From the IMG/VR virus record IMGVR_UViG_2721755725_000017: a stretch of 46,775 nt of DNA. One strand, written 5' to 3'. Positions within the stretch are counted from its first letter, which is position 1. Each line of letters starts with the position of its first letter. The position numbers were made by a program. The stretch is from a virus. Lineage: Duplodnaviria > Heunggongvirae > Uroviricota > Caudoviricetes. Shown piece after piece: positions 27,001-30,000 of this stretch.

Positions 27001-30000
27001 TTCCACCATTTCAGGAGGGTGTTCAAATATCACCGGCAGAAAGTGCGGATCATGAATTTTGCCGTCACGGACATCCCGGGCGTACTGCAGTTTCTGTCTG
27101 AACACCCCGGCAGGCGGTTCATTCGACTGGGTGGTTGTGTACACCACAAATCCTTCCGGACGGGAGGCAAGCCCGCCGATGGCTTCACGTAGCATGTCTT
27201 CCGCTTTGTACTGCTTGCCAAACAGCCACAGTTCATCAATCAGTGTCCCCACGGACTTGATACCGGACACCGTATTCGGATCGGCTGCCACCACCTTCAG
27301 GGTGGTGTCTGTCACCCTGTGGGTGATGGTCCGGATATGGGTCTGTACCTGGCAGAGGTCATCCAGATCATCGTCACGTCGTACCATATCCCGGGCAGGG
27401 TTGAAGGCGTTGGCCGCCACCTCCACAGTCGGGGCCAGAATCGTGTAACCCGCCGCCTGCCGCCAGTTCAGTAACAGCGCCGTCATCATGATCCCCGCGG
27501 CCAGCGTGGACTTCGAGTTTTTCTTGGGGATAAGGATAAACACTTCCTTGATATGGCGTACACCGGTCTGCGCATCATAGGAGCCAAACAGGGCCGCCAC
27601 CAGGTCAAACACCCACGCTGCACAGGACTCCCCGAATGTCGGGCTACCAGGTGCATCCACAATCCGCAGTTGTTTAAAAATCGCCAGGGCATGTGCGGCC
27701 TCGTCCGGATAAATCGGATCCGGAATAATCGACAGCCCCTTTTTCAGGCGCTCTGCCCAGTCCGGACATGCCGTGCTCCATACAGGTATCATCCGCTTTC
27801 CTCATTCTGGTTATTCACCACCAGTCGGGGAGGTGGTGGCACCGCAAAACGGTTAGCCGCTTTTTTCGCGGCATCACCTTTTGCCGATTTTTTACCGGCA
27901 TCGCCTTTTTTATGGTGTGTGAACTGCGCCAGTCGCCAGGCCGCATCCAGTGCCAGTTTCGGGTCAATTATCAGGTTTTCCACCAGGATCTGCCCCATAG
28001 CTTTCACCGGATCGGGAAGACCATCCTCCATATATTCAATACCATGAGATATCACCGCGGGCGGAGGCATCTCCGGATTGTTTTCGTCCGGCTGTGGTAT
28101 TGCAGCCACCTCACGGCGACGGGGTTTATCCTCCTGCTCTGATTTTTTCTGCCGGTAAACAGGAACCTCATCCACCTCCACCGTTTCGCACTGTTTACGG
28201 GCTATAAACGCGAGCACCTCCGGATCTTTTGCCAGCTGCGAGCCTTTAACCCTGGCGGTCTTCGCCGAATAACCGGCGGCAATGGCTGACGCTGTTTTGT
28301 TTTTCCCGGACATGAGCGCCAGCGCAAATTTTCGTTTTTGCGTTGTCAGCACAGCCTCCTCCCGGGTCCATAACGCACTCAGCCGGGTATGGTTCAGCCC
28401 ATTTTTCCCGGCGTCTCATGCCGCAAATGTTAACTGCTGCCTGGTTAACATTTGCTGAAAAAGCCAGTTAACATTTTTTTCGCACAACAAACTGAATAAT
28501 AAAGATAAAAACCGCAAAAATGCCCGGGCAGCCAGTTAACATGTTAACTGGCCTGAAACAGGAATTTTTTCTCTGCATGAGACGGGGGGCGGTGTCCGGG
28601 GCGATCGTTTTTTTCGCCGGATGATCCCCCCCCCCGGGGCGGGTCACAGTCCGATGATATCGTCTGCCCTGCCATGACCTCCGGCAGCGTCGGGTCCGGC
28701 ATACCACTCGCCGTTTCACTGACTGACTTCTGGCGATGGCATTCGGTACAGAGCGTCCAGAGATTCGTCTCCTCATTACCACCACCGAACTGAAGTGCAA
28801 TGCGGTGATCGAGTTCACTGTCACAAAGGTCAACCACACGCCCACAGAGACAGCACTGTCCGGCATCCCTCAGCCAGATACGACGCTTGAGGGAAACCCG
28901 GGCACTGCCACTGACCCGACGCTGTTCACCCTTCAGGACATTCACCCGCCGGGTATTCAGAGTTTTGATTCTGCCCGGTAACGTACGAAGCACGGCCATG
29001 TAAAATCCTCGCCATATAGCTTGTCACCAGAGGAAAGAAAATGTCACCGAAAAACCGGACCCGCAGAACAACAACCCGCAACATCCGATTTCCAAACCAG
29101 ATGATTGAACAAATTAACATCGCTCTTGACCAGAACACGACCAGAGCACCTGTTCAGACAGGTTTACTTAAACGACTTATATATGACACAAAAAGCGACC
29201 ACTAAAGTCGCTTTTTCTTATGGTAACAGGCAATAACTCTCTCAGATATTTTTTAGCATTTTTTTGACCGCGCGTTTCCGGACGTATTCTGTTCTCCTGT
29301 CCCTTTATATCGTCGGAATACCCGCCGCTCTTCAAATCCCATTCCCAACTCAGAATGTAGTCTGTTGACCGCTTGTTTTATTTCGGTCAGGTTCACCGGT
29401 GAAACCGGAGTCCGGCGCGCCTTACGCAAACACTCTGCTCGTTTCTGTGCCGCCACTTTTCTTTTCTGGTCATCACTTAGCTGTACCATCACTTTTGCCC
29501 ATCGTTCAGCTGCTCTCCGGTACAGTCCTTTTTTCTCCAGACATTCTGCCACGTGATCATGTAGCATAAGTGACCTCCGATTATCTACAGACTGCCATCC
29601 TGAATTTACCTTCCCTTAATGAAATAACAATAAAAAACAAACCACGCAAAAACAATAAAACAACACACAAAAAAAACTAAATAATAAACAAAAATAATCA
29701 CCTTATTTTATTATTTTTTGAGGGGGCAATTACTGAACAAAAAACGCTGACTATATACTCAAAACCAAACAACTATTCTGCCAATCAGGTATCATGGCAA
29801 CATACGGAATTACCGTGTTTTTGCCTTCTCTGCCCATACAATACGGGCATATACTTCATACTCTATTGTAATATTTCTATCCATACGCCCCACTCCATTT
29901 ACCTGTAAATAATATTCAAAATATTTATCACAGAAATCGTTTTTGGCCATGAACTGAGCACACTATAAAGTCCGGAACTGACTCTTTGTTAAATTACCTT

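Follow-up and report, generated by a model that had tools for sequence, protein, structure and literature searches.

The region between the lysis cassette and the packaging genes of this prophage is best explained, and we hold this explanation with very high confidence, as a pchA-type moron within a defective prophage of EHEC O111:H-, whose product PchA de-silences ler and whose small convergent neighbor is a decayed gene. The 104-amino-acid gene at its center is, judged by its sequence, a pchA-type allele in an O111 prophage. The regulator that it encodes is already known and annotated, and the locus is a textbook instance in O111.

The pchA-type gene and its O111 prophage

The stretch of DNA analyzed here, 46,775 nucleotides in length and called the window below, is as a whole the reverse complement of positions 4956258 to 5003032 of NC_013364.1 and was found to be a lambdoid prophage integrated beside dusA in Escherichia coli O111:H- 11128. 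The approximately 1.7 kb around pch are 100% identical, over their full length, to that genome (NC_013364.1) and to other O111 genomes. The prophage contains an early region, a Q-type antiterminator and three tRNA genes, a nanS-like esterase, and a lysis cassette in the order holin-endolysin-Rz, which is followed by the pch region; past the latter lie the HNH, terS, and terL genes and then HK97-type head genes and lambda-like tail genes, and the remaining parts are an effector cluster and an integrase. The local gene order is Rz, pch, a ylcI remnant, HNH, a repeat-rich intergenic region, and terS. The Rz-type gene (30033 to 30512, minus strand), annotated as "lysis protein" (WP_000092321.1), is the last of the lysis cassette and adjoins the pch module upstream, and the ORF listing has Rz1 embedded within it (30095 to 30280).

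The intergenic region at 28353 to 28648 is rich in repeats and contains G/C runs and five GTTAACAT motifs (28423 to 28552, upstream of terS), which occur in both orientations and include a perfect palindrome, GCCAGTTAACA/TGTTAACTGGC; its location is the cos place in HK97-type phages. The GTTAACAT cluster is probably the terminase recognition (cos-proximal) region, and the placement of pch between this putative cos and the lysis cassette is a reasonable one that agrees with the gene order.

The prophage is defective. Both the portal gene (21497 to 23918) and the integrase gene (1668 to 2766) are frameshifted, and the early region is truncated and interrupted by an IS1203 remnant (36213 to 36941). 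The HNH endonuclease gene of the packaging module (28649 to 28999, minus strand; Pfam HNH E value, 3.2e-06) is a RefSeq pseudogene missing its C-terminus: similarity to intact HNH proteins (28544 to 28999, minus strand) ends at a C9/G4 homopolymer run, the frame being lost at 28627 to 28645. Excision or packaging is probably beyond the reach of this prophage. Elsewhere in the window, the anti-GcvB small RNA AgvB (33647 to 33706, plus strand; 56.2 bits against an Rfam cut-off of 56) is directly abutted by STnc100 (33707 to 33915, minus strand; Rfam, 175.6 bits), and the three tRNA genes (Ile, Arg, and Arg; 34028 to 34276) lie between this pair and the Q antiterminator gene (34779 to 35531).

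The effector cluster sits beyond the tail fiber genes, at 3578 to 6735, and is composed of espM2 (3578 to 4168, minus strand), an nleG-like DUF1076 gene (4351 to 5001, plus strand), espW (5080 to 6138, plus strand), and a truncated nleG-like DUF1076 pseudogene (6268 to 6735, minus strand). Its content corresponds to the espM2/nleG8-2/espW set listed for Sakai Sp17 (PMC2323221), and in this prophage that set is accompanied by a pchA module. The regulator had been predicted to lie beside an effector cargo; the effectors (3578 to 6138) are in the same prophage but approximately 23 kb off.

The pchA-type gene occupies positions 29253 to 29567 on the minus strand, with a Shine-Dalgarno sequence, GGAGG, 6 nucleotides ahead of the ATG. 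Its product includes KKGLYRRAAERWAKVM, from which a PerC/Pch-like regulator had been proposed at this place, and both the ORF and the family likeness were borne out. Residues 1 to 89 of the protein match positions 1 to 89 of the 90 in the Pfam PerC profile (PF06069) with an E value of 3.8e-44 (149.3 bits; gathering cut-off, 22.6 bits), and such a full-length match above the gathering score makes it a member of the PerC family. In RefSeq the product is named "PerC family transcriptional regulator" (WP_001303878.1), and UniRef gives the exact 104-amino-acid sequence, which at least 1,000 contigs carry, the name "PchABC family transcriptional regulator." PHROG transcriptional-activator families were also matched, and the match to the NCBIfam ANR family (E value, 0.046; 13.6 bits) was far under the cut-off of 32.

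Sakai prophages Sp4 and Sp11 served as the reference for comparison with pchA and pchB. With PchA of O157:H7 Sakai (ECs_1091, Sp4) the protein is identical at 104 of 104 residues, and the 315-nucleotide coding sequences have no nucleotide differences; with PchB (ECs_2182, Sp11) it shares 103 of 104 residues (V6L), with one nucleotide change in the coding sequence. By its near-identity over 104 amino acids to PchA and PchB of O157:H7, and by its context in a lambdoid prophage 3' of the lysis genes in O111, for which the presence of the LEE is documented (PMC2323221), the protein belongs to the group 1 Pch proteins. A 967-bp segment that begins within Rz and runs to the downstream junction is 99.1% identical to the pchA locus, the hairpin and the AT-rich upstream sequence included; with the pchB locus it shares 94.8% identity, with six gaps in the flanks. 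The adjacency of Rz and pch is common to the window and to both Sakai loci. The leader is identical to that of Sakai pchA for 158 nucleotides 5' of the ATG, and the upstream region is approximately 99% identical. Nine substitutions were found in the flanks, all of them 3' of the stop codon or more than 158 nucleotides ahead of the ATG, and it is conceivable that a regulatory difference from Sakai pchA arises from them.

The prophages that host these genes differ. The one described here is dusA integrated and has HK97-type head and packaging genes and an espM2/nleG/espW cargo, whereas Sakai pchA resides in Sp4. Sp4 and Sp11 also carry effectors, those of the pchB prophage Sp11 including NleG effectors. 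LrhA reportedly regulates pchA and pchB differently (Honda et al. 2009, as cited in PMC4456613). The founder of PF06069, PerC of the EPEC pEAF plasmid (perABC), has in common with the protein described here both the Pfam family and the LEE1/ler promoter target (PMC4764244). In contrast to the prophage-borne pch, however, EPEC PerC is plasmid borne and encoded in the per operon, and PerC is needed for LEE expression only in particular conditions, whereas pch is essential in EHEC (PMC4764244).

Genes of this type were detected in 673 of 5,426 complete E. coli genomes, with a median of three copies, almost all of them at least 99% identical; each of the O111 genomes listed has three copies. pchABC-type genes had already been detected in 2007, by CGH, in 6 of 6 O111 strains (PMC2323221). 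Among the places occupied by the pch module in complete E. coli genomes, 15 of 1,877 are plasmid borne, one of them adjoining nleH. The module is nearly missing from 50,697 deposited phage records, in which only two unannotated fragmentary records match.

A sequence search for a solved relative of the 104-amino-acid protein found none, and the homologues recovered by a word-indexed search were all near-identical sequences or frameshift variants. An AlphaFold model built from four sequences was of low confidence (pLDDT, 67; pTM, 0.32), with five helices and, from residue 88 on, a disordered tail, and Foldseek found no structural neighbor of this model in the PDB (best E value, 7.8). PchA is probably a small, all-helical DNA-binding protein.

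Anatomy of the pch module

Upstream of the gene, the AT-rich region of approximately 460 bp noted in the original prediction was recovered as a spacer of 465 bp (29568 to 30032, minus strand) that extends to the Rz stop codon and holds the leader and presumably the promoter of pch; its GC content is 0.29 to 0.37, compared with 0.50 to 0.58 in the flanking genes. A consensus scan of this region for sigma-70-like sites gave two, against 2.7 expected from shuffled sequences, and none stands out.

An ORF of 46 amino acids within the upstream region (29810 to 29950, minus strand) has a full-length match to phrog_2157 (E value, 2.3e-37) and could encode a genuine small protein or serve as a translated leader. 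The annotation of SMN152SH1 includes it as a hypothetical protein (WP_001345149.1), whereas that of 11128 does not. Compared with the Sakai pchA locus, this ORF has three nucleotide changes, which fall in two codons and cause the replacements R to H and Y to N.

According to published work, the pchA mRNA has an SD/anti-SD structure that the small RNA DicF opens at low oxygen (PMC7769764, PMC7873438). As the pch coding sequence and the 158-nucleotide leader are identical to those of Sakai pchA, the published SD/anti-SD element should be present here. In folds of the leader with the coding sequence, the SD was mostly paired (probability, 0.5 to 0.95), with a partner that alternated between positions +24 to +30 and +157 to +160. 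The folding energy of the leader and coding sequence was no better than that of shuffled sequences (z, 0.26), and a duplex prediction for DicF and pchA mRNA gave an unrealistic full-length duplex.

Between the stop codons of pch and the convergent ORF lies a two-way terminator-like hairpin, A5-GCGAC-N7-GTCGC-T5 (29190 to 29218), which folds on both strands (ΔG, -11.9 and -14.7 kcal/mol; z, about -2.8) and is kept in O157 loci whose ylcI-type gene is intact. This hairpin escaped a simple terminator scan, which apparently extended the stem into the A/T runs and was left with no T tail; it was found by direct folding. Of the shared terminator that had been proposed for the two genes, the hairpin itself is thus present, and from its structure it would be expected to terminate transcription.

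Comparison with a prophage of O157 644-PT8, which has KilA-N and another gene in the place of pch, delimited the module. Similarity between the two prophages stops in the 3' third of the ylcI-type gene and returns only inside Rz, at approximately position 30201, with 84% identity. As these breaks fall inside the ylcI-type gene and inside Rz, the pch module is made up of an AT-rich region, a gene, and a hairpin, as is classical for a moron. The module occupies the slot between Rz and the packaging genes, the slot that holds bor in lambda.

Published function of Pch and the O111 copy

Full ler and espA expression, as well as adherence, has been described to depend on the group 1 pch genes (pchA, pchB, and pchC) (Iyoda and Watanabe 2004, as cited in PMC6265319 and PMC4456613). 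Activation of the LEE1 promoter by Pch takes place only while this promoter is silenced by H-NS/StpA/Hha; Pch lowers H-NS occupancy both in vivo and in a reconstituted complex, and enhances the Ler-dependent activation of other LEE promoters (PMC4764244). AT-rich sites at LEE and non-LEE effector genes are, according to the papers that cite Abe et al. 2008, bound by Pch (PMC4764244, PMC4456613). The activation of LEE1/ler by H-NS relief was shown experimentally for PchA (PMC4764244), which is identical to the O111 product. Known inputs on pchA include LrhA, Lrp/butyrate, and LeuO (PMC4456613), as well as NtrC/sigma-S, which acts on pchA in response to glutamine and serine (PMC10714755, PMC13012123).

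By analogy with this literature on an identical protein, from which both the mechanism and the upstream regulators are taken for O111, PchA would bind AT-rich, H-NS-covered DNA at the LEE1 (ler) promoter and displace H-NS/StpA/Hha. This displacement would de-silence ler, and Ler would then switch on the other LEE operons together with effector genes outside the LEE, among them probably espM2, the nleG-like gene, and espW on the same prophage. The AT-rich region upstream of pch would be the input side, where LrhA, Lrp/butyrate, and NtrC/sigma-S would act on pchA transcription, and DicF would relieve the SD/anti-SD structure in the mRNA. The proposal that a prophage-borne regulator is coupled to type III secretion was correct, yet it is not new: PMC3378721 explicitly describes Pch regulators on effector-carrying cryptic prophages as coordinating these effectors with the LEE.

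We infer from its sequence that the O111 copy of pchA is expressed and active. It is unlikely that this copy is instead a silent or redundant passenger in a decaying prophage, with the LEE controlled through the other pch copies. Consistent with a passenger are the defective state of the prophage, with its frameshifted portal, integrase, and HNH genes, its IS1203 remnant, and its truncated early region, and the occurrence of approximately three pch copies per O111 genome; in O157, moreover, the pch paralogues contribute unequally (PMC13012123, PMC6265319). However, the coding sequence and 158-nucleotide leader are those of the functional Sakai pchA, and the locus as a whole is 99.1% identical to it. 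Sakai pchA also resides in a rearranged, IS-disrupted prophage, yet it is the major contributor according to the literature. In addition, pch has stayed intact while its neighbors decayed, which suggests selection. An active pchA-type gene in a defective prophage is the reading that we prefer.

The convergent ylcI/ynfO-type remnant

The ORF of 54 amino acids that converges on pch (29041 to 29205, plus strand) had been put forward as an unannotated small gene with a good RBS. The ORF exists, as does its RBS (GAGGAAA, 5 to 6 nucleotides before the ATG), but it is a frameshifted remnant of a YlcI/YnfO (DUF3950) gene with a 94-bp deletion and no novel gene. Nor is it unannotated: RefSeq/PGAP already marks 29041 to 29133 as a pseudogene, either a "DUF3950 domain-containing protein" or a "hypothetical protein," that is missing its C-terminus.

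An intact YlcI/YnfO gene of 74 amino acids (WP_000074669.1) is found between HNH and pch in O157:H7 PV15-279 and SMN152SH1. Alignment to these intact loci and to Sakai Sp4 revealed that the window is without 94 bp after codon 31, with a deletion junction at 29134/29135 and 2 nucleotides of microhomology. Because 94 is not a multiple of 3, only codons 1 to 31 of the ORF are original and the last 23 codons (32 to 54) are out of frame; the out-of-frame tail stops by chance at a TAA within the hairpin loop. The 54-amino-acid product matches DUF3950 with 17.9 bits, at profile positions 1 to 15 of 30, compared with a Pfam cut-off of 25 bits and with 70.6 bits for the intact 74-amino-acid protein, and it matches NCBIfam NF041551 with 13.9 bits (cut-off, 30). 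A complete DUF3950 domain above the gathering score, the mark of a YlcI/YnfO protein, was not found in it.

The RBS and first 31 codons of the ORF correspond to the 5' part of a gene of the YlcI/YnfO family, which is carried by lambdoid prophages such as DLP12 (ylcI) and Qin (ynfO) of K-12. YlcI/YnfO genes have the same orientation as the ORF, antisense to the late genes, and lie beside the HNH and terminase genes; compared with them, the ORF retains neither the native C-terminus nor the latter half of the domain. Sequences of this type were detected in approximately 4,170 of the 5,426 genomes, including K-12 (ylcI and ynfO) and prophages without pch. Since intact ylcI-type versions are widespread, the deletion, which is present in the O111 genomes listed, is derived. 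In Sakai Sp4, the ylcI-type sequence is undeleted as far as an IS629 insertion; the gene downstream of pch is thus damaged by an insertion in Sp4 and by a 94-bp deletion in the window.

Two observations led us to reject a dedicated pair of pch and ylcI genes. The ylcI-type sequences occur in approximately 4,170 genomes, compared with 673 for pch, and the HNH-ylcI arrangement is also found in prophages without pch. From these comparisons, the ORF is best regarded as a decayed gene of the phage backbone, outside the regulatory system and no partner of pch.

It is highly improbable that the ORF is nevertheless functional, either as a chimeric protein or through convergent transcription that would modulate pch by interference or antisense overlap. 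The original start codon and the good RBS are retained, the frame runs through 54 codons before it closes within the shared hairpin's loop, and the arrangement has been inherited unchanged across the O111 genomes listed, all of which could be expected of a functional gene. However, the ORF stems from a deletion in a gene that is intact (74 to 75 amino acids) in thousands of prophages, only half of DUF3950 is left (17.9 versus 25 bits), the last 23 residues are out of frame, and PGAP calls it a pseudogene. The hairpin lies between the ORF and pch and, if it terminates transcription, makes overlapping transcripts unexpected. There is likewise very little likelihood that the ylcI deletion shifts PchA dosage or the LEE in O111 compared with O157, where an effect would come via the new 54-amino-acid chimeric peptide or via altered read-through into the shared hairpin, or that the conserved 46-amino-acid ORF takes part in pch control.

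With the ORF regarded as a decayed backbone gene, the outcome for this site is negative and clarifying: the regulator is known, its small "partner" gene is a pseudogene, and no new explanation is needed. The only mildly useful new details concern the limits of the pch module, which fall within Rz on one side and within the 3' end of a ylcI/ynfO-type gene on the other, and the damage to this backbone gene, which differs between loci (the 94-bp deletion here and the IS629 insertion in Sakai Sp4). For EHEC, the significance of the locus lies in established biology: Pch regulators link prophage content to type III secretion, and the copy number and regulation of pch help to set the strength of LEE expression of a strain.
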